Positions 8,357 through 34,896 of a stretch of DNA of 64,000 bases are shown in pieces. The translations under genes were made by a program, and so were the position numbers. Where the stretch lies: the NCBI GenBank assembly GCA_965140585.1, contig OZ223264.1, positions 224,001 through 288,000 of the forward strand, written 5' to 3'. The notes under the pieces are model-generated. The model was not told the DNA's origin, ran no database searches, and saw only the letters and a program-made list of their open reading frames with translations. Numbering within the stretch: the first letter of the stretch is position 1; every line of letters starts with the position of its first letter. The DNA comes from Spirochaetia bacterium. Its GTDB lineage: Bacteria; Spirochaetota; Spirochaetia; UBA9216.

Positions 8357-8361
8357 TTTAT

Positions 8362-8380
8362 GAGAGGCTTTATGCCTCTC
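8362..8380 (+). terminator. Hairpin after the capsid gene (attenuator/stabiliser)
   Basis: gagaggc-tttat-gcctctc. Confidence 0.5.
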
Positions 8381-8398
8381 TAATTTAAAAAGGTAGTA

Positions 8399-9803: not shown

Positions 9804-9819
9804 AAAAAGGATTTAAAAA

Positions 9820-10806: not shown

Positions 10807-10817
10807 GAAGGTAAATA

Positions 10818-11398: not shown

Positions 11399-11443
11399 TT
11401 CAAATCATAAAAAGCCTGTGTGGCCGCAATCTTTATCTTATGT

Positions 11444-13573: not shown

Positions 13574-16500
13574 TGTTAGCTTACGTTGATTTTGGTTCAG
13601 GTGAATCAAACATTTCAGATTATATAATATCTTCCTCATTCAAGCGGACACTTCAGCTATGTAATGAAGAATTGTGCTATGTAGTTAACAAATGCAGTTT
13701 TGAAATCAAAGGTTCAACGACTCTGAAACTTCAGATTATGAACAGCGATGATACAACAATCCGGATAACTGAAGACGATGGAACAGCGTATTTTAAAGGA
13801 AAGGTAAGAGGAACATTTGAAACCAAAATCAGTTCTCAGGTAGGTAACCTAAAGGTTGAGTTGGTCGATAATCTCGATGACATAACAGCAACTGTTGAGA
13901 CTGTTGATATATGGTCTGGGTATAAGATATGTGACAGTTCAAATACTTCGGCTTCTATACTGCATCAACTCTTTTATTTGGCTGGTTACTCTTCCTCTGA
14001 TTTGAGCCTTGTGGATGTCGATGTGACAATTCCATATTTCTATTTGGAAGAGGATACTGCAGTCATTGATATTATCAGTGATTTAACTTTTCAATACGGT
14101 CAGGTGATTAACTGTGAACTCGATGGAACATTTAAGAATTACAGTATCTACTATGATGATTTAACAACTTCTTCTTATCTCAACAATACCAACATCTATG
14201 GTGAGCTTGGAATCAAGAAAGTTGAAGAGAAGTACAAATCGGTCAAGGTAATATGGAATCCTATCGAGTATGCAGCAGACAAGGTTGTCTTTTCAGATAT
14301 TACAAACGGAACAACTTTATTGCAATGTAATATTGAATTAGAACCTTCTCAGTATTACCAAGATGATGATGAGATATTTGCCAACTATACCTACAATGAT
14401 GAAGAGCTTGTCTATGTAGAAAATGCCTCTTTGGATATCAGCTGTGATGCTGATATTTCCTACTCAATAACTGAGGCTCCTAAGGGGGCTTATCTTTCTA
14501 TTCAGAATACAAACTCAACAATCAATGAGAACATTACAAAACTCGATATCACAGGTGATGTATATTATAAAGGTGCACAGCACACTGAATATTCTTCAAA
14601 CATTAGTGACACCAAAGATATAGAAGAGATTGAAGCCTCTTACATTTTTGAAGAGGCTTATGCTCAGAATCTTGCGAGTTATCATGCTGTTTACTACAAG
14701 TATTCTGATTTCAAATACACTGCCAAATCCAAAGACTATTATCCTATTGGGACACTTGTCCTGATAAACGAAACAGCATTTACCAACCTTGATGTTACTG
14801 GATTTGTCTCTCAGATTGTTGATGATGGAACTGGCTACTATACTTATACAATCTATTCAGTAAGTGAGTTCTCAGCACAGCCTATTACAACCAAAGTAAG
14901 TACAATCTCAAAGACCAACACCCAGATTTCAATTCCTACTATTGTTGAGGAAGTTTCAAATAATATTACCGTTGAAGGTGTTCCGACGTACAATGAGATA
15001 AACACAGGAGCTTCGTTGTTAAATGAAGGTTCTGCAACGACAACAATACCTGATGTGCCGACTGTTGTGGTTGAAGAATATTATAAATCACTCAGGATTG
15101 TTTACGATGTTCAAGACAACCTTTCAAACTTTAGCCACTATGAGATTCAGGTTTCAGCTGATGAATCAAATTGGTATTCATTGGCTTCAGGTTCAAATTG
15201 GAAAGATACTCTTAATGATACTACAGCTACTATTTTCTATTATCATACTCATGCAGGCATTCCTAACTCTGGAACAAGCCAAGAACCTACAGGAACAACT
15301 CTCTCATATAGAGTAAGACGTGTTACTTCTGCCAATGTTGAAAGTGATTGGTCAGATGTAGTAACAGGCACAACCAAGATTATCGAGACAGGTGATGTTG
15401 CTGCATCTTCAATAACTGCGGACAAGATAGAAGCTGGTTCAATCACATCTGATAAGTTATCAACAGACTTATTACAGACACAGATTGCACAGGTCAGCGG
15501 AAGTATCACTATTGATAGTTCTTATGGGTTTGTTGGGGTTGATAATGATACAAAGAGAAGAGTCTACCTCGATACTGATGAAGTGGTCGTCGAACAATAT
15601 AACGAAACAACTGGTGATAGTGTTGTTCAATGTAGAATGGGTGGAAAGATAAAAGGTGCACCTTCATCTTATATAATCGGAAATGGTTTAATTAAAAATG
15701 AAAATGTAGAGATTCCAACAGCAATCCCAGACACTACTTATAAATTCACATTTGAAACAGATTTCTCAGATACGACTGCTACTTATTATTTCTCAAATGA
15801 TACAGAAACAACACCAACTATAGATACATCAAAATATGTTTTTGGGACTCACTCCATGAAGCTTGTTTCAACTAATGGAGAATCTTCTGTTTCCGATTGG
15901 TTTATACCAACATGGACAGGTGGTAATCCATTCTTCTTTGCATCATATTTCTACATTCCTACTGGAACTACAGCTCACTTCTCTTTTCAAGTTGGAGCTG
16001 TGTATATGGATTGTGTGCATTTAGGTATTTCTACACTTTCGGGTTGGGCTGATGGGTATGTTACTAAAGATGGTGTTGATTGTGGTGCAACAGGAACAAT
16101 TGACATTCCATATGATGAATGGTTTCTCTGTGCAATAAGTTATGACCCTGTTTTAGATACATTAAGTGTATCAGTGAATGATAATTATATAACTGCAAGT
16201 ATTGATAATTCAACAGCTTGGGCTGGTTCAACAGATTATATGATGGGAAACATTATTTATTGGAATGATACCAGTGAAAGTATTTACATGGATGAAACTG
16301 TCTTGGATGTTGAAACTTTTATAGATATTAGTGAGGCAATTAAACAATACTCAAGAACTGAGACATGGAACATTGGTGAAGATATAAGTGATAACCTTTA
16401 TTTGATACCAGGAGAAGGCGGTTCTGTAATAATTGGTGGTGACATAACATTCTCAAATGCTTTTACGCTTACGGATGCAGAGATAACAACATTAAATACC

Positions 16501-17127
16501 ACAACGTTGAATTCAACAAATATAAATGGAACTCAAATATGTGCTGGGTATGACCCGAATGTTGATAACTCTGTTAGTTGTTCAAATTGGTTTCGTTCAT
16601 CAGGAAATACTGGGTGGTATAACGCTACTTATGCTGGTGGACTTTATATGGTGGATACAACATATGTTCGGACTTATAACGGAAAGTATTTTTATGCAAA
16701 CAGAGTTTATGGTGCTGTTGGTAATGACTATGCAGATGCCATAGAAATTGATGAAGAGTTGAATGTTGATTTTGGCTATGTCTATGTTAGAACTGCTGAA
16801 GGTAAAACAAGAAAGTCAACCAAATATGCAGAAAAAGGGATCATCGGAATAACTACAAATACCCAGTCTTTTACTGCTCATTCTTATGATGGAGAAAAAG
16901 ACAGATTACCAATTTCAGTTTCAGGATTTGTATTGGCTCATACAGATAGAATTTATAAATCAGGAACACCTCTTACTTCATCAAAAAATGGATTACTTAC
17001 TAAGGCTAGTCTGATTACTCGTGTCTTTAAACCTGAAAGAGTTATAGCAACGTTTTATAAAGAGATAAGTCAAAATACTTGGAATGATGTTGATGTAAAT
17101 AAAAGAAATATAGTGAGAGTTAAATAA
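13573..17127 (+). CDS. Tail tip/central fibre protein (hub + FN3 + LamG-like + fibre motif + C-terminal intramolecular-chaperone-like domain)
   Basis: YRVRRV..SDWS (FN3), SITADKI repeats, WFLCAISYD/YMDE (LamG-like), WFRSSGNTGWYN..GGLYM, GAVGNDYADAIE. Confidence 0.8.
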   Translation: MLAYVDFGSGESNISDYIISSSFKRTLQLCNEELCYVVNKCSFEIKGSTTLKLQIMNSDDTTIRITEDDGTAYFKGKVRGTFETKISSQVGNLKVELVDNLDDITATVETVDIWSGYKICDSSNTSASILHQLFYLAGYSSSDLSLVDVDVTIPYFYLEEDTAVIDIISDLTFQYGQVINCELDGTFKNYSIYYDDLTTSSYLNNTNIYGELGIKKVEEKYKSVKVIWNPIEYAADKVVFSDITNGTTLLQCNIELEPSQYYQDDDEIFANYTYNDEELVYVENASLDISCDADISYSITEAPKGAYLSIQNTNSTINENITKLDITGDVYYKGAQHTEYSSNISDTKDIEEIEASYIFEEAYAQNLASYHAVYYKYSDFKYTAKSKDYYPIGTLVLINETAFTNLDVTGFVSQIVDDGTGYYTYTIYSVSEFSAQPITTKVSTISKTNTQISIPTIVEEVSNNITVEGVPTYNEINTGASLLNEGSATTTIPDVPTVVVEEYYKSLRIVYDVQDNLSNFSHYEIQVSADESNWYSLASGSNWKDTLNDTTATIFYYHTHAGIPNSGTSQEPTGTTLSYRVRRVTSANVESDWSDVVTGTTKIIETGDVAASSITADKIEAGSITSDKLSTDLLQTQIAQVSGSITIDSSYGFVGVDNDTKRRVYLDTDEVVVEQYNETTGDSVVQCRMGGKIKGAPSSYIIGNGLIKNENVEIPTAIPDTTYKFTFETDFSDTTATYYFSNDTETTPTIDTSKYVFGTHSMKLVSTNGESSVSDWFIPTWTGGNPFFFASYFYIPTGTTAHFSFQVGAVYMDCVHLGISTLSGWADGYVTKDGVDCGATGTIDIPYDEWFLCAISYDPVLDTLSVSVNDNYITASIDNSTAWAGSTDYMMGNIIYWNDTSESIYMDETVLDVETFIDISEAIKQYSRTETWNIGEDISDNLYLIPGEGGSVIIGGDITFSNAFTLTDAEITTLNTTTLNSTNINGTQICAGYDPNVDNSVSCSNWFRSSGNTGWYNATYAGGLYMVDTTYVRTYNGKYFYANRVYGAVGNDYADAIEIDEELNVDFGYVYVRTAEGKTRKSTKYAEKGIIGITTNTQSFTAHSYDGEKDRLPISVSGFVLAHTDRIYKSGTPLTSSKNGLLTKASLITRVFKPERVIATFYKEISQNTWNDVDVNKRNIVRVK

Positions 17128-17639
17128 TGTCAGGTGAAACATTGGTTACTGATTCAAAATTCAGTCATTACTCATCCAGTTCATTTTCTGTTGGATCATC
17201 AGCTTATACATACGTACAAAGATTTGGTAGAGGTAATAGAGGTTATATGAATGGAACACCAAGAAGCAATATCTTCACTGATGATAGCTTTATTATGAGA
17301 ATCTATTACTACTCAGGAGGATGGGTTCAATCTGCATCAGCAGTTTGTTCTACTGATGGAACAGCCGTTGGTCTTTATTGTTCTTCAACAGATAGTTATA
17401 GAACCAGATGGTATTTTCTTTGGGATGCAAGGCCGTATGGTGATGGTAAAGCATATTTTGCTGGATATGGCAGAGTGGGGACTGCATACGCAATTAATCA
17501 CTCATCTTATCCTAGAGGAAAAAATCTTGCTTTGTATCGAATCACAAACTTTGGTTGTGATACTTCTAACACTTCAGCAACATCCGATAGTTCAACAGCA
17601 ATAACTACAGCACATTATGTATGTACAAAATATCAATAG
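17127..17639 (+). CDS. Aromatic/Gly/Ser-rich virion protein, possible receptor-binding tip
   Basis: Coupled to the tail gene (TAATG); Y/W/G/S/T rich. Confidence 0.45.
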   Translation: MSGETLVTDSKFSHYSSSSFSVGSSAYTYVQRFGRGNRGYMNGTPRSNIFTDDSFIMRIYYYSGGWVQSASAVCSTDGTAVGLYCSSTDSYRTRWYFLWDARPYGDGKAYFAGYGRVGTAYAINHSSYPRGKNLALYRITNFGCDTSNTSATSDSSTAITTAHYVCTKYQ

Positions 17640-17651
17640 GAGATTTTAAAA

Positions 17652-18089
17652 ATGGCTTTACTCGTAGATTTAAAAGCAGATAGTAATTACTCACAAATAG
17701 ATTTAACTGATGTCTATGTTCGTATAGATAGAGTTCAGATACAACCCAAGTTTGGGATTATGAAAATGACAGTAGAGGGTTATATCAGTCCTGATGTCTC
17801 GTCTGTTATTAGAGGAATTGAACAAGCACAGACAACCTTTGCTTCTAATTTCTTTGAAGAGGTGGGGAGTGATATTATTTCAGGCAGTTTGTATAACTCT
17901 GTCCAAGAAGAACGGAGTATGTTAGAACCACCTCCATTCACACAAGATTATCCAGTAGCACTATTCAATGATGTATTTACTGTAAGGCTAACTGAAGAGA
18001 CTGCTTCAACTTCTGTAGATGACCTTTATCCCATCTTATATGAAATGCTTAAAACAGAAACAAGATTTCAGAATGTCAGGGATGCTTGA
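17652..18089 (+). CDS. Phage protein, possible tail fibre assembly protein
   Basis: AGGAG SD; MAL...VYVRIDRVQI pattern; position after the fibre genes. Confidence 0.45.
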   Translation: MALLVDLKADSNYSQIDLTDVYVRIDRVQIQPKFGIMKMTVEGYISPDVSSVIRGIEQAQTTFASNFFEEVGSDIISGSLYNSVQEERSMLEPPPFTQDYPVALFNDVFTVRLTEETASTSVDDLYPILYEMLKTETRFQNVRDA

Positions 18090-18478
18090 TGGAAGAGGAG
18101 AGAAGAAAAGACAGAATTGATTTTCAAACTTATATGGAGGTTTTGGTGAGCAACGTAAAAGAAACTGTCAAAATAGAACTGACCTCTGTAAAGCAGGAAA
18201 TCAAGAACTTGGAAGAGAAGGTAATTACTCGCATTGACCTTCATGAAAAAGAAAGCGGTAACAAGATAACAAACATTGAAGAAGAGTTGGACTGTCTTAA
18301 AACCAAGGTCTCAAGTATTGAAAACAGAGTTGAAGCTTTGGAGTTGAAACCTATCAAGGATAATTCTGAGACAATAGAAAAGTTTAAATCAACATTCAAA
18401 AAGATTCTGTATACCACATTAGCAGGAGGGATAATCACTTTTATTTTGTATTTAATAAAAATGTTTTTAGGTGTTTAA
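18086..18478 (+). CDS. Coiled-coil protein with C-terminal TM helix (holin/antiholin-like)
   Basis: Heptad-rich body plus ILYTTLAGGIITFILYLI; first gene of the lysis cassette. Confidence 0.55.
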   Translation: MMEEERRKDRIDFQTYMEVLVSNVKETVKIELTSVKQEIKNLEEKVITRIDLHEKESGNKITNIEEELDCLKTKVSSIENRVEALELKPIKDNSETIEKFKSTFKKILYTTLAGGIITFILYLIKMFLGV

Positions 18479-18479
18479 A

Positions 18480-18944
18480 ATGTATATATTTCAAAATCAC
18501 AACGACCTGTATCCAGTTATTCAGGATGTGGGTTGTTACTTTCGGTCATGCCTTCATATTGCCGAGTTAGAAAGTCACAAGATTCTATCACCAACTCAGA
18601 TAAATAGATTATGGGATAAGGCAAATAGTTTAGGACAGATTATTGATTCTAATCTTAAAAAGCCAGGTCCGTTAATTGAACTTGGTTGCAAGGAGCTTGG
18701 ATTAGATAGGACTGCCTTTGATGTCGCAATCTTCAAGTATGGTCAGATTGATTATTATGGTTGGGTTAAATCACATCCTCAATACAAGAATTATAAATAC
18801 CTGATTCAGAAAGTTCAGACTGTAAATGATCATGAACATTATAGGGTTGTAGATGTATTTGGCAATGTAATATTTGACCCATATCATCCATCACCTGAAG
18901 TTAGCTTTATTTATAGTTCTATTCTGTTCTATGTAGGAGCTTGA
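18480..18944 (+). CDS. DUF261-like / C39 papain-fold protein, candidate endolysin
   Basis: Q..L...IQDVGCYF...QIN..W, HEHY, IFDP give a Cys-His-Asp arrangement; lies within the lysis cassette (alternative GTG start 18471). Confidence 0.65.
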   Translation: MYIFQNHNDLYPVIQDVGCYFRSCLHIAELESHKILSPTQINRLWDKANSLGQIIDSNLKKPGPLIELGCKELGLDRTAFDVAIFKYGQIDYYGWVKSHPQYKNYKYLIQKVQTVNDHEHYRVVDVFGNVIFDPYHPSPEVSFIYSSILFYVGA

Positions 18945-19307
18945 ATGGATGGTAAGAAAGTTATTATCAATATTACTTGCACTCTTGTTGTTTCAGCCTG
19001 CCTATACTTGGGCGGATTCTTTACTGCCAGAAGTATCTATAGTCGAGCAGTTGACGAATGTAATATTTCAATTGCAGAAAGTACAGAACGATATAACCAG
19101 TTATCAGAAGCTTATACAAGAATTACAGAAATCAATTCAGACTTACAAGGCAGACTCGATTCAAGCATCTTTGAAGCTGAAAGAGCAACAGGCATTATTA
19201 AATCAATATCAGAAGGACTTGGAAGCACATCAGGAGACATACAATCAATTATTGAATGCCTACAACGAATTGTTGAACAGATTAGAGAATATGAAGGTTG
19301 TGAATAA
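18945..19307 (+). CDS. Spanin-like protein A (N-terminal TM or VSAC lipobox + coiled coil)
   Basis: Hydrophobic N-terminus, heptad pattern, periplasmic Cys residues; AGGAG 5 nt upstream. Confidence 0.6.
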   Translation: MDGKKVIINITCTLVVSACLYLGGFFTARSIYSRAVDECNISIAESTERYNQLSEAYTRITEINSDLQGRLDSSIFEAERATGIIKSISEGLGSTSGDIQSIIECLQRIVEQIREYEGCE

Positions 19308-19544: not shown

Positions 19545-19988
19545 TTAGGGTATCTCGATTGATGTTGAAGAACTTTTTATCCAATTGTCAAGTTGCTCGA
19601 TTACTGATTTAATTTCAGAGGGTTTTTTCTTCTTGATTGCACATTCCCATATTATTGCTATCCGCCAGCCTTTACTTTTTAAATTCCGAATATTTGTACT
19701 ATCTCTTTCTACATTCTCTTGTAATTTTTTTTGCCAAAATTCTGTTCTGGTTTTTGGTAGTACAAAAAGAGGGCAGTTGTGCATATGCCAAAAGCAACCG
19801 TGAACAAAAATGACTACTTTATGTTTGGTTAATACAATATCAGGTTTACCGGGTAATTTTTTTGAATGTAGAGAATATCGATATCCAGAAGCAAATAAAC
19901 CTTTTCGAATTACAAGTTCAGGTTTTGTATTTTTAGCTTTAATACCACTCATCATTTTTGAACGAGTGGCAGGCGATACAATATCCAT
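19545..19988 (-). CDS. vsr: Very short patch repair endonuclease
   Basis: DIVSPATRSKMMSGIK.KNTKPE, LPGKPD, FVHGCFWH, IWEC. Confidence 0.97.
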   Translation of the reverse strand: MDIVSPATRSKMMSGIKAKNTKPELVIRKGLFASGYRYSLHSKKLPGKPDIVLTKHKVVIFVHGCFWHMHNCPLFVLPKTRTEFWQKKLQENVERDSTNIRNLKSKGWRIAIIWECAIKKKKPSEIKSVIEQLDNWIKSSSTSIEIP

Positions 19989-21235
19989 TATTTTACAAGC
20001 ACTAAATCTTCATGCTTTTTCATTGCATTGATAACAATCGGTTTAATAACTTTAGCAACTTCAGAAAAAACAGGGACAACTACACTATTACCAAATTGCT
20101 TATATGCTCTAGTGTCGGAAACCGGAATGTCGAAACTGTCATCAAACCCCATTAATCTGGCACATTCTCTGGGCGTTAGCCGTCTTGGGTTTTTGTTTTT
20201 TTGGTGAACTAAAATTTCTGAACCATCTTTATAATATCTGGCAGATAGAGTTCTGGAAACGTCGTTTTCTTTAACAAGGCCAAATCCAAATCCATTTCCT
20301 TTTGCTCTATGTTTCTCGGCATAGTTTTGTAAATAAGCCCAAAGTTTATCTGTTAAAGTATATTTGTCATGTACCTTGTTATTTTTATGGTCAAAATATT
20401 TATCCTTATCATGTTCAAGGAAAAGTTCAGAACCATCTGTTTTGTGAAGGATGCTACCAATCTTAACTTGCCCTTTTGGTGGATAGTTTAACATATCCCA
20501 GTCAAACTCAGCTTCATTTTTGAATCCAACAATAATTATTCTTTCTCTATGTTGTGGTACCCAATGTTGTCCATCTATTATGTGGGGATAGACATTGTAT
20601 TCTAATTCTTCTCGAAGTGTTCGCATAATTACTTTAAAGGTGTTCCCTTTATCATGTGATTTTAGATTCTTCACATTTTCAAGAACGAAAGCTTCTGGTC
20701 TTTTAGCATCGATTATTCGAGCTACATCGAAGAAAAGAGTTCCTTGTGTTTCATCTTCGAAACCATGCAATCTTCCAAGAGATATTTTTTTTGACACTCC
20801 AGCTATTGAGAATGGCTGGCAAGGGAATCCTGCCAATAATACATTGTGGTCTGGAATCTCTGACACCTCAACTTTTGTTATGTCTCCGTTTAAGAGTTCA
20901 CCATCTCTATAATTTGCAGCATAGGTTTTCTGAGCATATGAATCCCATTCAGAAGTAAAGACACATTCACCACCAGCTTTTTCAAAGGCATTTCTAATCC
21001 CGCCAATTCCTGCAAATAAATCTATAAATTTGAATTCACCATTAGTCTTTTTACCGATAGTTTGTGCTGAAATCAATTTCTGTAATCTATCAACAACATA
21101 ATCTTTTGGTTCAGATTCATTTTTTAACCAACGTGTGACTGTACTTACATTTACATCAAGTTCGTCAGCAATCTCTCGTTTAGTATAATAATTTAATGCA
21201 TTAGACAGATAATCGATAGTTTTGACTGTGCTCAT
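19988..21235 (-). CDS. dcm: DNA cytosine-5 methyltransferase, Dcm/M.EcoRII-like (likely CCWGG), with N-terminal HTH
   Basis: FIDLFAGIGG, AGFPCQPFS, LENVKNL, QHRER, KGNGFGFG, RTLSARYYKDGSEIL, KQFGNSV. Confidence 0.95.
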   Translation of the reverse strand: MSTVKTIDYLSNALNYYTKREIADELDVNVSTVTRWLKNESEPKDYVVDRLQKLISAQTIGKKTNGEFKFIDLFAGIGGIRNAFEKAGGECVFTSEWDSYAQKTYAANYRDGELLNGDITKVEVSEIPDHNVLLAGFPCQPFSIAGVSKKISLGRLHGFEDETQGTLFFDVARIIDAKRPEAFVLENVKNLKSHDKGNTFKVIMRTLREELEYNVYPHIIDGQHWVPQHRERIIIVGFKNEAEFDWDMLNYPPKGQVKIGSILHKTDGSELFLEHDKDKYFDHKNNKVHDKYTLTDKLWAYLQNYAEKHRAKGNGFGFGLVKENDVSRTLSARYYKDGSEILVHQKNKNPRRLTPRECARLMGFDDSFDIPVSDTRAYKQFGNSVVVPVFSEVAKVIKPIVINAMKKHEDLVLVK

Positions 21236-21246
21236 GAAATCCCCTC

Positions 21247-21286
21247 CCTGGGAACATATATTGCATTATGCACTATTTATTCCCAG
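21247..21286 (-). promoter_or_regulatory. Inverted-repeat operator upstream of dcm containing a CCWGG site
   Basis: ctgggaa...ttcccag arms enclosing tgcat-t-atgca; CCTGG at 21247-21251 next to the SD. Confidence 0.5.
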
Positions 21287-21355
21287 ATGAACAGGTTTAT
21301 TTTGAGTTAATTCCTCAGAAATGTCAATTATTATAAAGATTATATATGAATGGAC

Positions 21356-22546
21356 TTATTTCTGCTTTCTATCCCTTAATCTTTCTGTTCTTGAATATAG
21401 TTGAATGAGTTTTTCTTCTTTAACCCTAAAGCAGGTTCCATGATTTCGTTTAGTATGCATCCTAATTTCCATCATAACATCTCCTGATTCAATAAGCTGG
21501 ATAAACTCCTTTATTGAGGGGCCTGAATAATAGGTTAGCTCTACATAATGAAATTCTTCATTCTTATCTTTACCTCTATTTTCGGCACCGATATACGCAC
21601 TTTCTGTAAGCTTTTCATTTAGTCTAAATTGAATGGTCGTAAAATCATATTTTCCTATAGGAGTGTTATTAAAACATAGATATACGTTTTCAGTTTCATT
21701 ATCTACAGAAAGACTTAGATTGTGGGTATTAATGTTAATGGTCGGTGTTGAATACAACGCTTGACGTTGGTTTTCAGCATCAAAATAACCATACCTCTCA
21801 AGTCTCTCATTTTGATTTTTGGAGCCATCAATCCATTCCGGTTCTTTGAGAAATAAATTCATTTTTTCTTTAGATTGATTTTGTTTTAACCTGAAGCATT
21901 TCAGCTCAATACCCTTGAAGTCTGGTCCTGAAGAATTATTCTCTTCTATACCCATTAAAGATTCAAATGTGTATCCTACTCCTGTACTTCCAGAACGAAG
22001 TGTTTTGACATAACCCATTTCTTTAATTTTATCAAATTCCTCTAACAGTATATCGATGCCATTATTTCGCTGTACTGGTTGAATTGATAAGTGCCAATCT
22101 AAATCTAAAAAGAAAGAACCTTGTAAATTTGATAAATTTAGTTCAGAAAGTAATTCGGAATAGTAGATATGGTCAGGCTCAAGAATATGGATTTCATAAG
22201 TTCTTTTATAATCTTTTCTTCTTCCTACAATTATAAGAGTATGTTCAGGTACAGAATTGACTGATGTCTTTAGGCGCGTTATTCGTCTCTCAGGATACCG
22301 ATGGTAATGTTTATAATTACCATCCTTAACTTCAATTGTTCCTGTGTCATTCCAAAGATAGCTAATTTGTTCTGTATAATTTATTGATACATTCGGGATA
22401 AAGTTGGTAATTGCAGGAAAAAGTCTATATGCTTCAACCGGGATAAGAACGCCATGTCTACCAGAATCATCATTTTTAGTTAATATCTTACAGAGGATAC
22501 CATCTACATTTTCATAATTGATAAGAATTTTTGATAATACAGACAT
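21356..22546 (-). CDS. MvaI/BcnI-family restriction endonuclease with EcoRII-N-like N-terminal domain
   Basis: GSTGVGYTFESLMGIEENN..GPDFKGIELK, RNHGTCFR; N-terminal KILTKNDD..HGVLIP. Confidence 0.85.
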   Translation of the reverse strand: MSVLSKILINYENVDGILCKILTKNDDSGRHGVLIPVEAYRLFPAITNFIPNVSINYTEQISYLWNDTGTIEVKDGNYKHYHRYPERRITRLKTSVNSVPEHTLIIVGRRKDYKRTYEIHILEPDHIYYSELLSELNLSNLQGSFFLDLDWHLSIQPVQRNNGIDILLEEFDKIKEMGYVKTLRSGSTGVGYTFESLMGIEENNSSGPDFKGIELKCFRLKQNQSKEKMNLFLKEPEWIDGSKNQNERLERYGYFDAENQRQALYSTPTININTHNLSLSVDNETENVYLCFNNTPIGKYDFTTIQFRLNEKLTESAYIGAENRGKDKNEEFHYVELTYYSGPSIKEFIQLIESGDVMMEIRMHTKRNHGTCFRVKEEKLIQLYSRTERLRDRKQK

Positions 22547-26506: not shown

Positions 26507-27601
26507 TTATTGCAAAGACATTAATTCCTCAAGAATTATTTTACTAAAATCTGGTGGAAGTCTACTTGAATGTATCATGTATTCTGTAAATAGAAATGCA
26601 AATTTTGTTGCTTGTCTATTAGTTTTTGTAAATAACTTTAAACACTTTCTTTCTTTATCATTTGATAGAATTGACCAAGCTAATTCACGGAGTATTAATG
26701 GCGAGCTATTAATTTCAAATGGAGCCTCTAATGCATGTCTGATTAATTCGATGAATTTCCCCCAATGTGGCAATGATAATTGTTCACCTAAATCAGAACT
26801 TGGTCTTGCATTTTTTAATGCCTCTTCGTAAAGATTATTCTTATATTCATAGGTTTCCCGTCCGCCATATAGTAACATTAACAATGCATCAGAAAGATCT
26901 TCTTTTTTGTCTGGATGAAGATAAAGAGAAAAAATTTTATTAACAATCTCTGCTATAGAAATGAGAAATAAACTAGAATAATCTAATACCAAAGAGAGAT
27001 GCTCTTCTTTTTTAGGATCTAATTCTGGTGCGTTTTTTCTTAATAGAATGAGAGATTTACGACATGATTCCCCAGCATCTTTTATCATCCAAAAACTCGA
27101 ACGAGAGAAACTAATTAATTCGGATAATGTTGGATATTTTTTTCCAATATCAAAATATTTTTCCCATAAATCAATTTTACCTAAATTTGCGTCTGTCAAG
27201 GTTAAAGCTTTTTGTGAAGTCGCATCACAGAATACCTTAAAATCATGCTCGGTCAATAAAGTAACACCTATTTGACCAGCTGAGATGCGATGATCTTTCT
27301 CGATGTTGTCTTTTCGCAAGATGCAAATGCCCATCTCGGCAGACATGTATTTCATTATTCCATTTAACCATAAAGCTCTGTTAATTGGACTTTGCCCCTT
27401 TAAAGTTTTGCAATCAATTATAATTTTTTTATAGCTGATGAAATCACATGGAATATATGCTAGAACGTCCAAGTCGGTAATTTTAATATTTTTATTCTGT
27501 ATGTCTAGGGGACTACAGACATCTACCTCAAGTTGGGGGACCCAACCTTTTGATACAGCATACTTCAATGCTCTTTGTTTTTGTTCACGGTCTTGCATCA
27601 T
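26507..27601 (-). CDS. PD-(D/E)xK nuclease domain + helical C-terminal domain (candidate defence effector)
   Basis: REQK...ITDLDVLAY...IIIDCKT restriction-endonuclease-like motif order. Confidence 0.7.
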   Translation of the reverse strand: MMQDREQKQRALKYAVSKGWVPQLEVDVCSPLDIQNKNIKITDLDVLAYIPCDFISYKKIIIDCKTLKGQSPINRALWLNGIMKYMSAEMGICILRKDNIEKDHRISAGQIGVTLLTEHDFKVFCDATSQKALTLTDANLGKIDLWEKYFDIGKKYPTLSELISFSRSSFWMIKDAGESCRKSLILLRKNAPELDPKKEEHLSLVLDYSSLFLISIAEIVNKIFSLYLHPDKKEDLSDALLMLLYGGRETYEYKNNLYEEALKNARPSSDLGEQLSLPHWGKFIELIRHALEAPFEINSSPLILRELAWSILSNDKERKCLKLFTKTNRQATKFAFLFTEYMIHSSRLPPDFSKIILEELMSLQ

Positions 27602-28893
27602 AGTTTAGCTCCGTACATGATTGAATCTAGTTCATATTGCTTTTCTTCAGACAATGGGATTTCTCCTCTTTTCCTTAGGTTTGTTGCGCTTATTGTTGAC
27701 TCTACATATTCCTTGCTCTGTTCAAACATTTTACATGCCTCTGGGTTAATTTCTAATCCTGAGACAGCCTCGTTAGAAACAAGTGATAATGCAATGCCCA
27801 ATGCTTCCATATTTTCTTCTGTGTCTATGATGTGAAGTTGAGAATACCCGTGAGGAAGTGGCTCTAAATAGCCAACTCGGCATTGCACTAGGTTTTTATA
27901 TTGTTGAGTAGCCTCAGTTGTGCTACTTATTGTCTTTCTATCTCGTAAAGCTCTAATAATCGCTGCCGGTTGTCTTATCCTATGTGCCTTCGGTAAGAAT
28001 TGCCCTTGTCGAACAGAAGAAACAATTGCCATTGCTCGTTCATATATTTCACGTTTTGTTGGCGGTAGGTGTTTTGATGAAGGCGCTGGGGTAAACAGGA
28101 AGTAGTTTTTACCACTATGATCAGTTTCAATAGAGGGTGGTTTCACTATGCCAAATTGTGATAGGTTTAATAATAATTTGAGTTCATCATCTGTGATGTG
28201 GTGTCCGTTTATTTCTTTAGTTTCTTCGACTATTGATAAAGGTATACCCTGAACTGTTTTAATTAGACTTAAAATATTGCTGACAGATTTAGAGCCACTA
28301 CTAGCAACTGCATCTGTAAATATATCAATGTTCTCAGAGAAATAGTGTGGACTGAGTAATATATCTTTTCCTCGGGCTCGGCGATTAATTATAAAGTTTC
28401 CTTTTGTCCCAATATCTACTGCTCTATCAAAGAGAACTTTTTCAGGGCTAAGCTTCTGAAATAGAGAATCACGATTTTCTGGAGATTGAGCAAGGCGTTT
28501 CACCATCTCAATACATAACTGTTCTGATTCGTTAAATGACCCTTCAGACATAGAATAATCACCGATTACATGGTATAGATCTTCATAATAAGGAACATTA
28601 GGTAAAATCCCCTTAATAGTTCTTCCTTCTTGCCTGATCTTTACAAATTCAATATCACCTAAAATTTCTACTATCCCCTTAATCGATGTTGTTGGTATTG
28701 ATAAATAGTGATTTGATACCATTTTCAGAATTTCAAAGTCAATAAAAGGAAGACCTCTGATATGTAATGCTAATCGTACTGCCATGCCTATTTCAACTAA
28801 AAATCCGAACTCTGGAACATCAATTGCTCCTAAATTTAATTGAATTTCATGGCATCTTGCAGCTATTTCAGATGATTCACCTTTTGAACTCAT
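27598..28893 (-). CDS. Uncharacterised 431-aa protein, possibly tandem winged-helix (candidate defence sensor)
   Basis: AGGAGG SD; 4-nt overlap with the nuclease gene; repeated wHTH-like segments (ILGDIEFVKI, LSQFGIVK, LVQCRVGYL). Confidence 0.6.
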   Translation of the reverse strand: MSSKGESSEIAARCHEIQLNLGAIDVPEFGFLVEIGMAVRLALHIRGLPFIDFEILKMVSNHYLSIPTTSIKGIVEILGDIEFVKIRQEGRTIKGILPNVPYYEDLYHVIGDYSMSEGSFNESEQLCIEMVKRLAQSPENRDSLFQKLSPEKVLFDRAVDIGTKGNFIINRRARGKDILLSPHYFSENIDIFTDAVASSGSKSVSNILSLIKTVQGIPLSIVEETKEINGHHITDDELKLLLNLSQFGIVKPPSIETDHSGKNYFLFTPAPSSKHLPPTKREIYERAMAIVSSVRQGQFLPKAHRIRQPAAIIRALRDRKTISSTTEATQQYKNLVQCRVGYLEPLPHGYSQLHIIDTEENMEALGIALSLVSNEAVSGLEINPEACKMFEQSKEYVESTISATNLRKRGEIPLSEEKQYELDSIMYGAKL

Positions 28894-29023: not shown

Positions 29024-29115
29024 ATTAAACCTTAGGTAACCCGGAATAACGTGAATTGGGACAGGTGACTCAGTTGAAAATGTTGATGTGCAGTAATCGA
29101 GTTTGTGATATTGTT
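29024..29115 (+). repeat. 92-bp direct repeat, copy 1 (carries a putative promoter)
   Basis: Matches 29595-29686; last 65 bp identical; TTGATG...TGTGATATT. Confidence 0.9.
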
Positions 29116-29121
29116 TTCGTT

Positions 29122-29517
29122 ATGCAAAAAGTGTTAAAGAGGTTAATCCCTTTACTTATAATGCTAATCTTCTTATTTGTTGGATGTGAAAAAGTTGAAC
29201 ATTTTGAAATTTCTGATGTGATTATCTTAACGACATCTGATAATGCACCAATAATGTTTAATTATATAATAGATTATAAAGTTTATGGGTATAACGAGCG
29301 TGAGAGAATTAATAAGCTTGAATGGAAAATTGAATCACTAATTATTCCCGAATTTGTTGATTTTATAAATGAGCAAGTATCGGGATTTTCTAAATCTGAA
29401 ATGATTACTAGTAATAAGATCCTGAATGGCATGAATACAAAAGTTGAAAGTCATTTAAATAAAATAGCGTCTGAATATCATTTCAGGGTTAAAAAAGTTA
29501 CTATAACTGTAAAGTAA
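29122..29517 (+). CDS. Lipoprotein, possibly leaderless
   Basis: MQKVLKRLIPLLIMLIFLFVGC lipobox; ATG 9 nt after the putative -10. Confidence 0.7.
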   Translation: MQKVLKRLIPLLIMLIFLFVGCEKVEHFEISDVIILTTSDNAPIMFNYIIDYKVYGYNERERINKLEWKIESLIIPEFVDFINEQVSGFSKSEMITSNKILNGMNTKVESHLNKIASEYHFRVKKVTITVK

Positions 29518-29594: not shown

Positions 29595-29686
29595 ATTAAA
29601 CCTTAGGCAACCTGGAACTGTGTGAATTGGGACAGGTGACTCAGTTGAAAATGTTGATGTGCAGTAATCGAGTTTGTGATATTGTT
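29595..29686 (+). repeat. 92-bp direct repeat, copy 2
   Basis: Matches 29024-29115. Confidence 0.9.
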
Positions 29687-29865: not shown

Positions 29866-30627
29866 ATGCAACTGAGTCAATCTCAAGGGCAATATTACTA
29901 CAATGCCAGATGGTATGACCCAAGCATAGGCCGAATCACCACCGAAGACCCCATGCGTGACGGCCTAAACTGGTACGCTTATGCTAATAATAATCCGTTG
30001 AAGTTTGTTGACCCGAGCGGGTTGGCTAACTTGACATCATATACACCTGATAATCCCTATTACTATTATAGCTCCTCAAAAGTGACTGATACGGTTATTA
30101 AATCATTATCGCTTATTCCTTATATAGGTGTAGGTGCAGGAATTGCAGAGTCCATCTCAAACAAATTTGGTTTATTTGAGATTATTGATTTAAATAAACA
30201 AAGCCAAATTGATAAAGCCTCTGGAGGATTATCGTCTGCTGGAACTGTAGCAGGAATTATGAATAAATTGGGGGAAGGTTTTTTTAGTAATGGTTTTTCA
30301 AAAGTTTTAGGCGTTTTATCCACAATCGGAACAATAGTGGGACTTGCAGATTATGCTAATAGTTTCTTATCAGAACCCTCATTAGAAACGGAGAAAGCAG
30401 TAGATGCCTCAGGGGTCGTTCAGGGGAAACATTTAGACACATTAATCCCATTTGCAAAAGAAGTAGAAGAATTAATGTCTGGATATTTAGATAGTGGCGA
30501 TGTTGAAATAATTGAACGAGATGATGGTACTGACACATTGCAATGGAATTCGCAGGCATCTAAAGATGCATTCAATTCAGTTGTAGAAGATTATCAACGA
30601 AATGAAGTGGAAAGAACCGATGAATAA
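29866..30627 (+). CDS. Orphan Rhs core remnant + C-terminal toxin domain (hydrophobic, possibly pore-forming)
   Basis: YYYNARWYDPSIGRITTEDP..DGLNWYAYANNNPLKFVDPSG Rhs core end, then a Gly-rich amphipathic CT. Confidence 0.88.
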   Translation: MQLSQSQGQYYYNARWYDPSIGRITTEDPMRDGLNWYAYANNNPLKFVDPSGLANLTSYTPDNPYYYYSSSKVTDTVIKSLSLIPYIGVGAGIAESISNKFGLFEIIDLNKQSQIDKASGGLSSAGTVAGIMNKLGEGFFSNGFSKVLGVLSTIGTIVGLADYANSFLSEPSLETEKAVDASGVVQGKHLDTLIPFAKEVEELMSGYLDSGDVEIIERDDGTDTLQWNSQASKDAFNSVVEDYQRNEVERTDE

Positions 30628-30793
30628 TATAATTATTCTATTTACAGTATTAGCTGTATTATTCTCTAATTTTAGTATTTGGTTATATTCGAAACAAGCA
30701 AAATTTTCGAAGATTATTAAGATTATTTTGTTTATAGTAGCAGATGGTATTTGGGCTACTTTGTTTGTAATAAAGATAATAGAAATTTTATAA
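30620..30793 (+). CDS. Small two-TM protein, putative immunity protein
   Basis: Overlaps the toxin stop; MNNIIILFTVLAVLF...IILFIVADGIWATLFVI. Confidence 0.6.
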   Translation: MNNIIILFTVLAVLFSNFSIWLYSKQAKFSKIIKIILFIVADGIWATLFVIKIIEIL

Positions 30794-30838
30794 TTCTATA
30801 TAAAGACGTTTTAAACAATTATATATGATTCCATTGGA

Positions 30839-31040
30839 AGTAGTCCCGGAGAACCCGGACTACTCAACAGAGTCTATTCCGATAAATAGAGTTTGTTCGA
30901 AATTTCGGAAATGATTCATCGTCCTACCAATTTCGTCTAACGCGCGTTAGACGAACCCTTTAGGGCGGTGAGGGGAACTGCAGAAGCTCCGCTTCCGTCG
31001 GCAGATTTTGTAACAACGGGCTGTTGTACGAAGTCTGCCG
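30839..31040. repeat. Cluster of hairpins including two attC-like inverted repeats
   Basis: Perfect 24-bp palindrome ttcgtctaacgcgcgttagacgaa (30932-30955); cggcagattttgtaacaac..gttgtacgaagtctgccg (30999-31040); agtagtcc..ggactact (30839-30864). Confidence 0.7.
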
Positions 31041-31167
31041 GTTAACTATATAAACCACCTTACAGTTTTAAGAATATTACACAATCCATTCCCCTCTAAC
31101 GGATTAAACTTCAGACAAACAATAGTGTACTGAAATACCCATATATAATATTATGAAATAAGAGTTC

Positions 31168-31185
31168 CAATTAATGTATTAATTG
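31168..31185. other. Candidate prophage attachment junction (serine-integrase style)
   Basis: CAATTAAT-GT-ATTAATTG at the composition boundary, where ssb-like sequence begins. Confidence 0.6.
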
Positions 31186-31598
31186 AGGGAAACCTGGTCA
31201 GAGATCCGGTTTTAAATGAAACCCCAAAGGGGACTAAAATATGCAATTTCACAATTGCAACCAACAGATACTTTAAGCAGGATGAGGAATATCAAAAAGA
31301 AGTTTCCTTCATCGATGTGGAAGCCTGGTCCAGACTTGGGGTTGTTTGTGATAATGGACTTCAAAAGGGACAGGGGGCCAGAGTTGTAGGTCGTCTGAAA
31401 CAGGACAGGTGGAATGATAAGGAGGGCGCTTTTAAATCAAGACTGAAGATTGTTGCTGAACATGTGGAATTTAAGCCTGTATTCTCGAAGGAAGAGGCCC
31501 AGGCTCGTCAGGAGGCTGAGCAGGTAGATCTATCCCAGGAGGCCGTTGCGAATGTCGTAACGCCGGAACTGGACCCTGTCGCGGATTCAGTGATTTAA
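31170..31598 (+). CDS. ssb: Single-stranded DNA-binding protein lacking its native start codon (5' end interrupted)
   Basis: NVLIEGNLVRDP..TPKGTKICNFTIATNR..EVSFIDVEAW..VVGRLKQDRW..IVAEHVEF; in-frame TAA at 31146 with no ATG/GTG/TTG before the OB fold (ATT at 31170 possible). Confidence 0.9.
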   Translation: MNVLIEGNLVRDPVLNETPKGTKICNFTIATNRYFKQDEEYQKEVSFIDVEAWSRLGVVCDNGLQKGQGARVVGRLKQDRWNDKEGAFKSRLKIVAEHVEFKPVFSKEEAQARQEAEQVDLSQEAVANVVTPELDPVADSVI

Positions 31599-31618
31599 AT
31601 ATTTTAATATGTGATGCG

Positions 31619-31660
31619 GCGGAAGCCCGGAATATCCCGGCTTCCGCTTACCCTTTTTTT
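31619..31660 (+). terminator. Rho-independent terminator
   Basis: gcggaagcc...ggcttccgc followed by a T tract. Confidence 0.7.
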
Positions 31661-31707
31661 CAAAAATACCGGTGGAAATATAGGCTTCAGCAGGGCATAA
31701 TCAGTTT

Positions 31708-32652
31708 ATGATGCGTGAAGATTTGCAGGAAATAATGAATAAAGTTGATCTGTTTTATAAAAACGGCAGGAGCCGTGATGCTGAACCGCTTCTGCAAAAA
31801 AGTGCAGAGGATTTTGAACAAAAGTATGGCAGGAATGAAGGCTATGCTGCTATAGTGAGCGAACTTGGAGCCCTGTACAGGGAATTAAGTGATTACAGCA
31901 GGGCGGAATACTGTTTTTCAGAGGCCGGAGAAACGTTGAAAAGCTGTGCGGGTGAAAATAATCTGGAATATGCCACTATTATTAATAATACTGCCGGGCT
32001 TTACCGGCTCATGGGGAGACATGATGAAGCTGAAGATCTTTTCCGGCAGACTATCAGTCTGTATGAGAAAACAATAGGCCGGGATCATTACCTGTATGCC
32101 AGCAGTCTTAATAATCTTGGCCTTCTGTACCAAGATATGAAACGTTTTGATGAGGCTGTGATTCTGCATGAGGAAGCTCTTGAGATAATCAGGAGGCATG
32201 AGGAACACAGAATTGCGTATGCAACAAGTCTTAACAACCTGTCCGGTGTGTACAGGCAGCTGAACAGACTTAAAGAGGCTGAAACTTCTGTTGTCGAAGC
32301 ATTGCAGTGCTGCCGCAGTATTCTTGGTCCGGAACATCCGCTATATGCTGCAGGTCTTAATACTTATGCCGCCCTTTATTTTGAATTAAATAATTTTAAA
32401 AAGGCGGAAGAGTGCTACATAGAGGCTGCAGGAATCTGCCGCAGACATTACGGAAAAGAGCAGTATGAATATCTTTCAGTTGTAGAAAACCTGTGCAGGC
32501 TGTATGAGAGAACCGGAGATGATGAGAAAGCTCTGCCTTTGCTGCAGGAGCTTGTTTCCGGGTATGGAAAGATATTAGGTGGGGAACACAGGAAAACCCG
32601 GGCTGCTGCTGCAGCTCTGGCAGCGCTTGAAAAAGAGTCTGAAACAAAATAA
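31708..32652 (+). CDS. Tetratricopeptide repeat protein (42-aa TPR type)
   Basis: Repeated YA.SLNNL..LY...G....A. Confidence 0.92.
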   Translation: MMREDLQEIMNKVDLFYKNGRSRDAEPLLQKSAEDFEQKYGRNEGYAAIVSELGALYRELSDYSRAEYCFSEAGETLKSCAGENNLEYATIINNTAGLYRLMGRHDEAEDLFRQTISLYEKTIGRDHYLYASSLNNLGLLYQDMKRFDEAVILHEEALEIIRRHEEHRIAYATSLNNLSGVYRQLNRLKEAETSVVEALQCCRSILGPEHPLYAAGLNTYAALYFELNNFKKAEECYIEAAGICRRHYGKEQYEYLSVVENLCRLYERTGDDEKALPLLQELVSGYGKILGGEHRKTRAAAAALAALEKESETK

Positions 32653-32657
32653 TCCTG

Positions 32658-32702
32658 CGGGGAAAAACTCCCCGAAAAACTACAGCGGGGAAATTTTCCC
32701 CA
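32658..32702. promoter_or_regulatory. Tandem palindromic enhancer (UAS) sites for the NtrC-family regulator
   Basis: cggggaaaaactccccg (32658-32674) and cggggaaattttcccca (32686-32702), ~120-165 bp upstream of a sigma54 promoter. Confidence 0.7.
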
Positions 32703-32821
32703 TGTTTGAACTCCAGCTTTATAAAATTGTTATCAAATCTCATGAAATTAAGGTGTTTTAGAGCAAAAATTCCCTTTTTTTGCTGAAATCATTTAATTAA
32801 ACAGTCTATATAATTTTTTTC

Positions 32822-32838
32822 TTGGCACGCTAATAGCT
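32822..32838 (+). promoter_or_regulatory. Sigma54 -24/-12 promoter
   Basis: TTGGCACGCTAATAGCT with GG-N10-GC spacing. Confidence 0.85.
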
Positions 32839-32872
32839 TTAATGCATATAACCAAGATTAAAGGAGTATGCT

Positions 32873-33472
32873 ATGAAAAAGGCATTAGTGGTTTTAATTA
32901 TGTTAAGTGTGGCTGCAGGTGTTTTTGCAACCGGAGCACAGGAGGCTGATGAGGATGGAATTGTCAGACTCGACCCCAGGGATGTCGCCAGAAACAGTGT
33001 GCTGGACGACTATGAAAAAGTTTCAGTAAAGGGCACAATAAAGTTTGAGAGTGTGGTGCCTGAACTGTCTGCCGGGGGAAAGGAATATGCTCTTACCGCA
33101 CCCGGAGCGAATATGCTTGCATCTTATCTTACAGAAGGTCAGAAGGTAACAGTCAACGGTTATATTGTTGATGAAGATTCCTTTTACGGTCCGCGCGGGA
33201 TGGGGCCTGGAATGATGAATTTTTTAAACCCGGAAGCTTTGAACAACGACATAACACTGTTGGTTGAGTCTGTCGAGATTGATGGACAGCTTTACATGCT
33301 GCCATGGGTTGAAGATGGTTTCGGAACAATGATGCAGGGAAGAAACTTTTCAGATGATTCCAGATTTGGAAATATGCGCGGCGGAACCAGTTCCAGAGGC
33401 GGTTTCTCAAGAAACAACAGCGGTTCATATAACCGACCGTACATGAACTCTGATTTCTGCCCCGTTTACTGA
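32873..33472 (+). CDS. Exported protein with OB-fold-like core and Gly/Met/Arg-rich segments (accessory to the two-component system)
   Basis: Signal peptide ...GVFA-TGAQE; GMGPGMM; sigma54 promoter upstream. Confidence 0.7.
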   Translation: MKKALVVLIMLSVAAGVFATGAQEADEDGIVRLDPRDVARNSVLDDYEKVSVKGTIKFESVVPELSAGGKEYALTAPGANMLASYLTEGQKVTVNGYIVDEDSFYGPRGMGPGMMNFLNPEALNNDITLLVESVEIDGQLYMLPWVEDGFGTMMQGRNFSDDSRFGNMRGGTSSRGGFSRNNSGSYNRPYMNSDFCPVY

Positions 33473-33489
33473 TTAAATAGGAAAATCTG

Positions 33490-33525
33490 AAGAAAGCCGG
33501 CAATTAGAATTGCTGGCTTTCTTTT
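33490..33525 (+). terminator. Rho-independent terminator
   Basis: aagaaagccggcaatt/aattgctggctttctt + T. Confidence 0.7.
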
Positions 33526-33540
33526 ATCCTTTATAGTATT

Positions 33541-34896
33541 GTGATAATAATGATGAACCGAAAGGGTCTAATTGCCATACCTTTTACCGCGCTTATCCTG
33601 CTTTTTACTGTTCTTATATTTCTTCTTATCGATCAGAAACAGAACAGTAATGCTATTATGCTCGAGTACCGGGCCTCAAGAACAATAAACCTGCTGATTG
33701 ATTTATATTTTCAGGAAGATATGCCCAGTCCGGATGAGATCGACAGTGATATCATCGGTTTTGGATTATATGGAATTGATGGAAAGCTGCTCTACCATTA
33801 TGGAACCGCGCCTCAGGATTTTACAGATCTGAACCGGCATGCCGATGTCTACCTCAAAGATTATCTTCCGGCACCCCAGCTTAGAAATATTGATCTTCAG
33901 GGCGGTAGGGTTCTGTTTAATGGCAATGAAAGTATTGCTGTGATCAGACCCCTGATTGGAGATCAGACAAACATGCCTATGGGTTCGATGATGCAGCAGA
34001 TGCCTCCAGCCATAACTGAGCGTGCCCGTGAGTTTCGCCGTCAGGGCGGTGGCATGCCTCAAATGGGAATGAATTCCCAGTTCAGAACTGCGGGTGCGGG
34101 AGTGTATCTCGAATACCGTAACGGAGCCTATTTAAAGCAGCGGAATCTTAATATAGCAATTGTCTCGTTGTCTCTTGCTGTTTTTGCAGTATCGGTGCTT
34201 TTAATTATTTCGTTATACCTTAAAAATAGAAAACTGGAACTTAAATCGGAAAAGGACCGGCAGCTCATTCAGCTTGGTGAGGCTGCCAGAGTTCTTGCTC
34301 ATGAAATCAGGAATCCGCTGGGAGTACTGAAGATACAGCGGGATCTGCTTGTAAAAAAGCTGGGTGAGGGCTACTCGGGAAATCTCGATGTGATAGACCG
34401 TGAACTGAAGCGGCTTAACACTCTGGTGGAGAAAGTCGGTGACTTTCTGAGAAATCCTGCAGGTACAGGGGCTGATATTGATGTTGGAAGCTATCTGAAC
34501 GGTTTATACGGTGACAGGGACAGCATCAATCTGAATGGAATAAACCCCGGAGAATGTTTTATAAGTTTCGATCCTGAACGCTTAAGAACGGTGTTTGACA
34601 ATGTAATTAACAACGCTGTAGAAAGCGGGGGAACAGCTGAACTTGATATTTTTTCTTCCGCCGATTCCGTTGCTGTTGAAATAAAAGATTACGGACGCGG
34701 ATTTTCTTCTGATAATCTGTCGATGGTTTTTGAACCTTTTTTTACAACCAAGACCAGCGGAATGGGGCTTGGACTTTCTGTTGTTAAGAAGTTTATGGAA
34801 GCTTCAGGAGGCCGGGTTATGATTGGTAATCATGAAGCAGGCGGATATGTGCGGCTTGAATTCCGCAGGGGACATGGTCCGGGGAGTACAGGATGA
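33541..34896 (+). CDS. Sensor histidine kinase
   Basis: Two TMs, LAHEIRNPL, NAVES, DYGRG, FFTTK.SGMGLGL. Confidence 0.95.
   Translation: MIIMMNRKGLIAIPFTALILLFTVLIFLLIDQKQNSNAIMLEYRASRTINLLIDLYFQEDMPSPDEIDSDIIGFGLYGIDGKLLYHYGTAPQDFTDLNRHADVYLKDYLPAPQLRNIDLQGGRVLFNGNESIAVIRPLIGDQTNMPMGSMMQQMPPAITERAREFRRQGGGMPQMGMNSQFRTAGAGVYLEYRNGAYLKQRNLNIAIVSLSLAVFAVSVLLIISLYLKNRKLELKSEKDRQLIQLGEAARVLAHEIRNPLGVLKIQRDLLVKKLGEGYSGNLDVIDRELKRLNTLVEKVGDFLRNPAGTGADIDVGSYLNGLYGDRDSINLNGINPGECFISFDPERLRTVFDNVINNAVESGGTAELDIFSSADSVAVEIKDYGRGFSSDNLSMVFEPFFTTKTSGMGLGLSVVKKFMEASGGRVMIGNHEAGGYVRLEFRRGHGPGSTG

Follow-up and report, generated by a model that had tools for sequence, protein, structure and literature searches.

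The start of a second gene for a single-stranded DNA-binding protein (SSB) in a Spirochaetia bacterium is parted from its body by a 39-kb prophage that carries a serine integrase, in what is a clean and fairly ordinary gene-splitting integration. The DNA analyzed, hereafter referred to as the window, is a stretch of 64,000 nucleotides from contig OZ223264.1 (assembly GCA_965140585.1, positions 224,001 to 288,000 of the forward strand). The breakpoint lies exactly at window position 31176, at codon 7 of the SSB paralog. The event was probably a plain, recent, and reversible insertional inactivation of this gene by the prophage. Listed below are the features at the right end of the element.

31133-31149, + strand: 17-nt element AAATACCCATATATAAT, which includes TATAAT, 26 nt left of the probable crossover GT
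31150-31175, + strand: phage half-site (P arm) of attR, holding a weak AAGAG (31160-31164) and an in-frame ATT (31170-31172)
31168-31185, no strand: perfect inverted repeat (8-2-8) that combines the P half-site of the phage with the B' half-site of the host
31176-31180, + strand: GTATT, the sole bases common to attB, attL, and attR in a three-way alignment
31176-31598, + strand: body of the second SSB paralog (codons 7-146 and the stop), with the OB fold and an acidic tail ending in ADSVI, and with no canonical start

The SSB-like frame opens past a TAA at 31146-31148, reads YYEIRVPINVLIEGNLVRDP..., and stops at 31596-31598, its product ending in ...PVADSVI. The original prediction held that there is no ATG, GTG, or TTG ahead of the OB fold, and this is borne out: the first such codon is the GTG at 31317, from which only 93 amino acids would be made with half of the OB fold missing. 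When read from the ATT at 31170, the product matches the Pfam SSB profile PF00436 with an E-value of 3.1e-26 (residues 3-101 against profile positions 4-103 of 104). The OB-fold domain is thus complete, the gene lacking no more than its start codon and a few residues. The break also falls, as had been claimed, at a transition from AT-rich to GC-richer DNA. The GC fraction in 1-kb bins is 0.30-0.39 up to about 31000 and 0.39-0.48 beyond, and the prophage island as a whole has a GC content of 35.7% versus 43.5% and 44.7% in the 20-kb flanks.

The first codons of the gene were expected beyond the other end of the prophage, and it is there that they were found. The missing 5' piece, which comprises the promoter region, a GAGGAG Shine-Dalgarno sequence, the ATG, and the codons for MNSLNS, is located 39,185 bp to the left, beyond the window. 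It forms attL at G000:C1:215973-215995 (G000 being this genome), where GAGGAG, ATG, and MNSLNS-V end in GTATT. The corresponding locus of a genome from the same genus (G001; 96% protein identity) splits in two when aligned to this genome with blastn. Query bases 2-1508 match C1:214491-215995 and bases 1504-3423 match C1:255176-257098, such that five bases overlap. From the three-way alignment, attB reads ...ATGAACAGTCTTAATTCA-GTATT-AGTTGAGGG. The left arm of attB and GTATT, followed by phage DNA, constitute attL, whereas attR consists of phage DNA, GTATT, and then the right arm of attB. The two GT dinucleotides are 39,185 bp apart. When the halves are joined in silico, as excision had been predicted to do, an intact ORF of 146 codons results, and 144 of its 146 residues are identical to those of a database protein that represents an intact 146-residue allele of the paralog.

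The gene is uninterrupted in the prophage-free relatives, namely the same-genus genome, the database protein, and a 13,409-nt contig from a different study. The contig fits positions 31176-32812 with 22 differences in 1637 nt (∼98.7% identical) and diverges exactly at 31176, before which it reads ...GAGGAGAAAAATGAACAGTCTTAATTCA, that is, the empty site. A start of the form ATG-MN[SNP][LIV]N[SD] is present in the loci of 18 of 19 relatives, the nineteenth being cut by a contig end. In these 18 loci the sequence runs ATG-MNSLNS-(V/I)-L-(V/I)-EGNL behind a strong GGAGG-type site. Among the 150 orthologue rows listed from a search of 401 genomes and read by eye, only this genome begins at residue 6. 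That a mis-join or an indel in the assembly, or an error of annotation, masks a normal start codon is highly improbable. A 34,361-nt Logan contig of a run with this DNA bridges positions 29892-34000 with 0 differences and, by spanning attR in this way, excludes a mis-join there. Additionally, both junctions are reciprocal and have a common core, with the integrase at the far end. The sequencing-run evidence comes from Logan assembled contigs of four runs, and assembled contigs drop rare forms.

An integrase had been anticipated at the distant end as well. It proved to be a large serine recombinase of 514 amino acids, which starts 60 bp to the right of the attL core on the same strand. The N-terminus reads MERCGVYCRVSTELQ, including YCRVSTELQ. 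The Resolvase domain (PF00239, E 4.3e-26) extends over residues 8-152, the Recombinase domain (PF07508) matches with an E-value of 1.2e-14, and the zinc ribbon (PF13408) is weak at 22.6 bits, under the cut-off of 25.3. The protein falls into PHROG 95, integrase, with an E-value of 1.7e-85. Its N-terminal resolvase domain, its large C-terminal part, and its length, within the range of 400-700 amino acids, are those of a large serine recombinase. The attachment sites are short, with the identity between attP and attB confined to GTATT and with inverted half-sites in attP. By tblastn and a PDB sequence search, the nearest characterized integrases are those of A118 and U153 (24-25% identity over 92-96% of the length), and SPbeta YokA/SprA displays 23% identity. 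Both Rfam at the gathering threshold and ARAGORN gave 0 hits to tRNA or tmRNA in the whole window, which rules out such a gene as the integration target.

In the rebuilt attP, the motifs TTCCAA and TTGGAG are each 5 nt from the GT, and 9 of the 12 inner positions are symmetric about it. The attB site is near-asymmetric, with 2 of 12 such positions. Within GTATT the only non-palindromic dinucleotides are GT and TT, and the symmetry center of attP picks GT rather than TT; the crossover dinucleotide is probably the GT at 31176-31177. A perfect 8-bp inverted repeat with a central GT had been claimed here, and CAATTAAT-GT-ATTAATTG at 31168-31185 is exact. Taken alone the repeat is weak evidence, given that the window contains six perfect 8-2-8 inverted repeats, four of them in the AT-rich part, as compared to a mean of 1.0 in 20 mononucleotide shuffles. 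It carries weight because it coincides with a junction that was mapped independently. Its host half, ATTAATTG, is native to the lineage, as the intact allele likewise reads V-L-I.

The 17-nt element to the left of the P arm has a second copy at positions 4019-4035 of locus L023, 26 nt to the right of the attL GT and just 5' of the integrase gene. The two copies correspond to AAATACCC[A/T]TATATAAT, are identical at 16 of 17 positions, and are direct rather than inverted on the arms of attP. In the lysogen, the integrase gene and the SSB remnant each have one of the copies in front of them. The element may act as a promoter or operator, and the duplication of this TATAAT-bearing sequence ahead of the integrase gene means that transcription could run outward into the remnant.

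The prophage and its contents are as follows.

1-31175, + strand: right 31.2 kb of the 39,185-bp prophage, delineated by the split blastn alignment, GC content, and phage genes found with Pfam and PHROGs
G000:C1:215991-224000 (locus L023), outside the window: left 8.0 kb of the prophage with attL and the integrase gene
3046-19307, + strand: packaging, head, tail, and lysis module (Pfam, E 1e-9 to 2.5e-78)
3046, 3522, 5232, 6458, and 7202, + strand: TerS, TerL, portal, S78 protease, and capsid, respectively (Pfam)
8399, 9820, 13573, and 18086, + strand: head completion, tail tube, 1184-residue tail protein, and XhlA-like protein, respectively (Pfam)
11420, + strand: tape measure (PHROGs, E 1.2e-8)
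19545-22546, - strand: type II restriction-modification cargo (Pfam, PADLOC)
29866-31071, + strand: cargo adjoining attR, with an Rhs-tip-like ORF (29866-30627), an overlapping small membrane ORF (30602-30793), and a GC-rich block (30930-31071)

The left end encodes, in order, the integrase, a divergent 339-residue ORF, an HTH protein, a C5 methylase, an HNH endonuclease, a radical-SAM protein, and a DnaD/O-like replication initiator. Judged by its gene content, the element looks like a complete, temperate siphovirus-like prophage whose phage modules form a full set. Neither a recombination directionality factor nor a repressor was recognized among the prophage ORFs with Pfam and PHROGs, and activity of the prophage is for this reason an assumption. 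The restriction cargo consists of a Vsr very-short-patch nicking endonuclease, an HTH-fused C5 cytosine methylase, and an MvaI/BcnI-family endonuclease. The prophage encodes another C5 methylase in its early region (L023 7145-8077). Between the restriction set and the Rhs-like cassette there is a two-gene operon on the - strand (26507-28893) that encodes proteins of 431 and 364 amino acids with a 4-nt overlap. It has no match in Pfam, PHROGs, or PADLOC, and its genes are candidate defense or moron genes. Several further cargo ORFs are without a family. A 92-nt direct repeat (29024-29115 and 29595-29686, 93% identical) flanks an ORF at 29056-29517, and a third, partial copy is located at G000:C1:423978-424054.

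In the cargo adjoining attR, PHROG 10385 matches residues 6-53. Blocks at 29887-30026 and 30910-31071 recur with different middles at C7:597647-598920 and C6:1101823-1103424. These bounding blocks, of ∼135 nt and ∼140-160 nt, are 82-87% identical among the copies, and the Rhs-tip-like ORF and small membrane ORF that they enclose are laid out like the swappable polymorphic-toxin/immunity cassettes. The conserved, GC-rich, and hairpin-rich block of 140 nt at 30930-31071 has no Rfam match.

The split gene had been taken to be ssb. It does belong to the SSB family, but it is a second paralog rather than the housekeeping gene. There are only two SSB-family matches in the genome, and the housekeeping ssb is intact on contig 4, in the order rpsF-ssb-rpsR, with an ATG start and a product ending in FEDDIPF. 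The split gene is bordered by an aminotransferase gene and a TPR gene, and its product is ∼33% identical to that of the housekeeping gene. It was rejected as the housekeeping ssb because it has neither the rpsF-ssb-rpsR context nor the DDIPF tip, both of which are found on the contig-4 copy. In a first search the paralog was present in addition to the canonical ssb in 40 of 40 relatives. A match (E<=1e-25) was observed in 282 of 401 genomes of the class, with some families of this sample being without one (none of the 37 genomes of one small-genome family, for instance).

The closest homologues are named "single-stranded DNA-binding protein" and are from Spirochaetales or Spirochaetia bacteria. 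The orthologues contain 127-150 amino acids, start with MN[SNP][LIV]N[SD], and carry acidic tails with a hydrophobic tip (ESVI, EALV, KVPF) that is not DDIPF. An intact orthologue scores 87.7 bits against the general model TIGR00621 (cut-off 53.95), the only one passed, as all of the NCBIfam SSB equivalog models are far under their cut-offs. A divergent class-IV aminotransferase is common to six paralog loci, and a chorismate-binding enzyme is encoded downstream in five others; this context is uninformative for function. Homologues of ComEC and DprA are present in the genome, as they are in non-competent control genomes.

A palindrome, GTTCCGGAAC, is positioned 20-30 nt before the Shine-Dalgarno sequence of the paralog, just past a TATAAA-like box, in many relatives (loci L005-L011; a further example is at positions 1501-1510 of L041). 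In this genome the site (L023 ∼3935) is degenerate, GTTCCGGTGC, as it is in the genus. There are 10 exact copies of GTTCCGGAAC in the genome versus ∼3 expected, and two relatives have 13 and 9 exact sites versus 1 and 5 for the reversed control. A regulon or common regulatory motif built on this sequence was dropped from consideration, since only 2 of the 16 sites examined (of 22) in the two relatives are intergenic, both of them at the paralog. Another sequence, GTTCCAGAAC, occurs as twelve intergenic copies within 40 kb (G000:C6:921923-962300), which may represent a repeated intergenic element of a gene cluster or another mobile element.

The SSB remnant contains no stop and no frameshift. 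It is 96% identical to the gene of the same-genus genome G001, with 30 synonymous and 4 non-synonymous codon differences among 141 codons. All four of the differing residues are shared with the intact allele, and there is no lineage-specific residue. Such an undecayed state fits a recent insertion, and it would fit equally well with continued use, either by low-level expression from the ATT or by periodic restoration. The reading frame left under the host signals at attL is a stub of 11 codons, MNSLNSVLFGA, followed by a stop, and no terminator-like site was found between this stub and the integrase gene.

It is rather unlikely that the gene is functionally rescued, with the phage arm providing transcription and a start at ATT 31170, read as Met, to give MNVLIEGN..., such that the lysogen would continue to produce a paralog that is slightly shortened but has its OB fold complete. 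The TATAAT (31144-31149), the weak AAGAG, and the in-frame ATT on which this reading depends are all present to the left of the remnant, in agreement with the original prediction. The ATT begins 5 nt past the AAGAG, and ATA 31158 is the other near-cognate candidate. In another frame, a minimal ORF consisting of a start, one codon, and a stop (ATG AAA TAA, 31153-31161) is located 9 nt 5' of the ATT at 31170. The product would cover positions 4-103 of the 104 in the Pfam profile, the 17-nt element occurs in the upstream region of the integrase gene as well, and the remnant is without lineage-specific amino acid changes. A scan with the sigma-70 consensus, however, revealed no acceptable -35 for the TATAAT and called no promoter there, and the AAGAG is weak beside the native GAGGAG. 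ATT start codons are rare and inefficient. Half-site recognition by the integrase accounts for the resemblance between the P arm and the host arm (TTAAT).

A role for the prophage as an active-lysogeny switch, excising reversibly or non-lytically in response to a host signal and thereby confining production of the paralog to times of need, is likewise judged unlikely. The integrase gene would then be read from the paralog's own promoter at attL, in the manner of SPbeta in spsM or the Listeria comK phages. The precise restoration of the ORF upon in silico excision, the undecayed remnant, and the position of the integrase gene, on the same strand and 60 bp behind the host promoter, Shine-Dalgarno sequence, and stub with no terminator-like site between, are in keeping with such a role. 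So is the fact that A118/U153 and SPbeta have the nearest characterized integrases, though at just 23-25% identity. Against it, the element is found neither in the same-genus genome nor in the ∼98.7% identical contig nor at any other orthologue locus listed; it is thus not fixed, unlike the usual switch elements. The prophage carries full lytic modules, and neither a loose end at 31176 nor an excised form is seen in the assembled contigs, which cannot show rare forms. Of the properties of a regulatory element, an interrupted and restorable ORF is observed here, but retention across strains or species is not.

A more far-reaching version, regarded as quite unlikely, is that the conserved second SSB of Spirochaetia is specific to DNA uptake or repair, that the phage targets its highly conserved first codons in the way that competence genes are targeted by other serine-integrase elements, and that integration silences the gene and puts the integrase under the host promoter, with a host signal then driving excision and rebuilding of the gene. 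If true, this would constitute a signal-coupled switch that resets itself, of which no example is described in the phylum.

According to the preferred reading, insertional inactivation, a temperate siphovirus-like phage would have integrated via its own large serine recombinase as the 39,185-bp prophage, at an attB located across the opening codons of a second, conserved paralog of SSB. Within GTATT, the non-palindromic GT would be the probable point of crossover, which falls in codon 7. In the resulting lysogen, attL keeps the host promoter region, the GAGGAG, the ATG, and MNSLNS, with the integrase gene behind it on the same strand. The OB-fold body is kept at attR behind phage DNA that offers a weak AAGAG and a near-cognate ATT or ATA, and no ATG, GTG, or TTG. 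The paralog would most likely be silent or strongly reduced, a loss that the cell presumably tolerates because the housekeeping ssb is intact. Restoration would be expected only upon excision of the prophage, as an incidental result of ordinary induction or of curing. The integration is best viewed as recent and polymorphic in the population, and not as a domesticated switch.

Close relatives of the integrase were not found in scans of genome, viral, or metagenome contig collections, and the exact 26-nt P-arm pattern gave 0 matches in viral and metagenome contigs. Integrase matches with E<=1e-30 are present in 8 of 400 other genomes of the class, the best with 31% identity. No fragment of the SSB paralog was found near these eight loci within the DNA examined around them, and recurrent use of the paralog site was not observed across the eight loci of the 400 genomes and the three contig collections.

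Serine-integrase prophages inside ORFs are textbook cases, with comK, spsM, sigK, and groEL1 as targets, and the Listeria phages A118, U153, and phi10403S integrate into comK. The element described here resembles these Listeria phages in that a large serine integrase adjoins attP, the integration is inside an ORF, and excision restores the ORF. The differences are an integrase of just 24-25% identity, a host from another phylum, and another target gene. A serine integrase, a split host gene, and its reconstitution on excision are also features of the Bacillus systems SprA/SprB-spsM of SPbeta and skin-sigK, as outlined in the portion of PMC5499854 considered here. Whereas SPbeta and skin are fixed in their species and excise under a developmental program that acts through a known directionality factor, the present element is strain-variable, and no such factor was recognized in it.

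In the sections drawn on here of the catalogue of large serine recombinase targets by Durrant et al. 2022 (PMC10083194), the SSB family PF00436 appears in 7 of 1069 target gene clusters versus 0 of 908 random genes, with an enrichment p of 0.013 and an FDR of 0.065 (supplement file 1, "Fig. S1B"). There it is listed with ComEC, DprA, ComM-type Mg chelatase, T2SSE, and pilin motifs, and competence genes are strongly enriched among the targets. On the basis of these entries, SSB genes are already on record in bulk as targets of serine integrases. The catalogue, as far as these sections go, is a bulk table in which no case from a spirochaete is described. No ssb-splitting prophage in spirochaetes is described in the open-access literature searched, and the SSB-splitting prophage demonstrates no new mechanism. 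In the parts consulted of PMC3128108 and PMC3616714, SsbB of Bacillus, Streptococcus, and Streptomyces is an additional SSB paralog that is not essential and exists next to the one encoded in rpsF-ssb-rpsR. Like SsbB, the split gene encodes a second paralog; of the models, however, its intact orthologue passes only the general TIGR00621, with the equivalog models far below cut-off.

The locus provides a concrete, inspectable case beside the catalogue-level pattern in which serine-integrase elements hit SSB and competence genes. It also yields a fully resolved set of attB, attP, attL, and attR sites for a spirochaete serine integrase, in which the core measures 5 bp and the GT crossover can be deduced, and the integrase together with these sites could become a genetic tool in a phylum that has few. 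Finally, it points to a widespread and unstudied second SSB paralog of Spirochaetia, and the natural lysogen paired with the empty site represents a ready-made knock-down for probing the role of that paralog.
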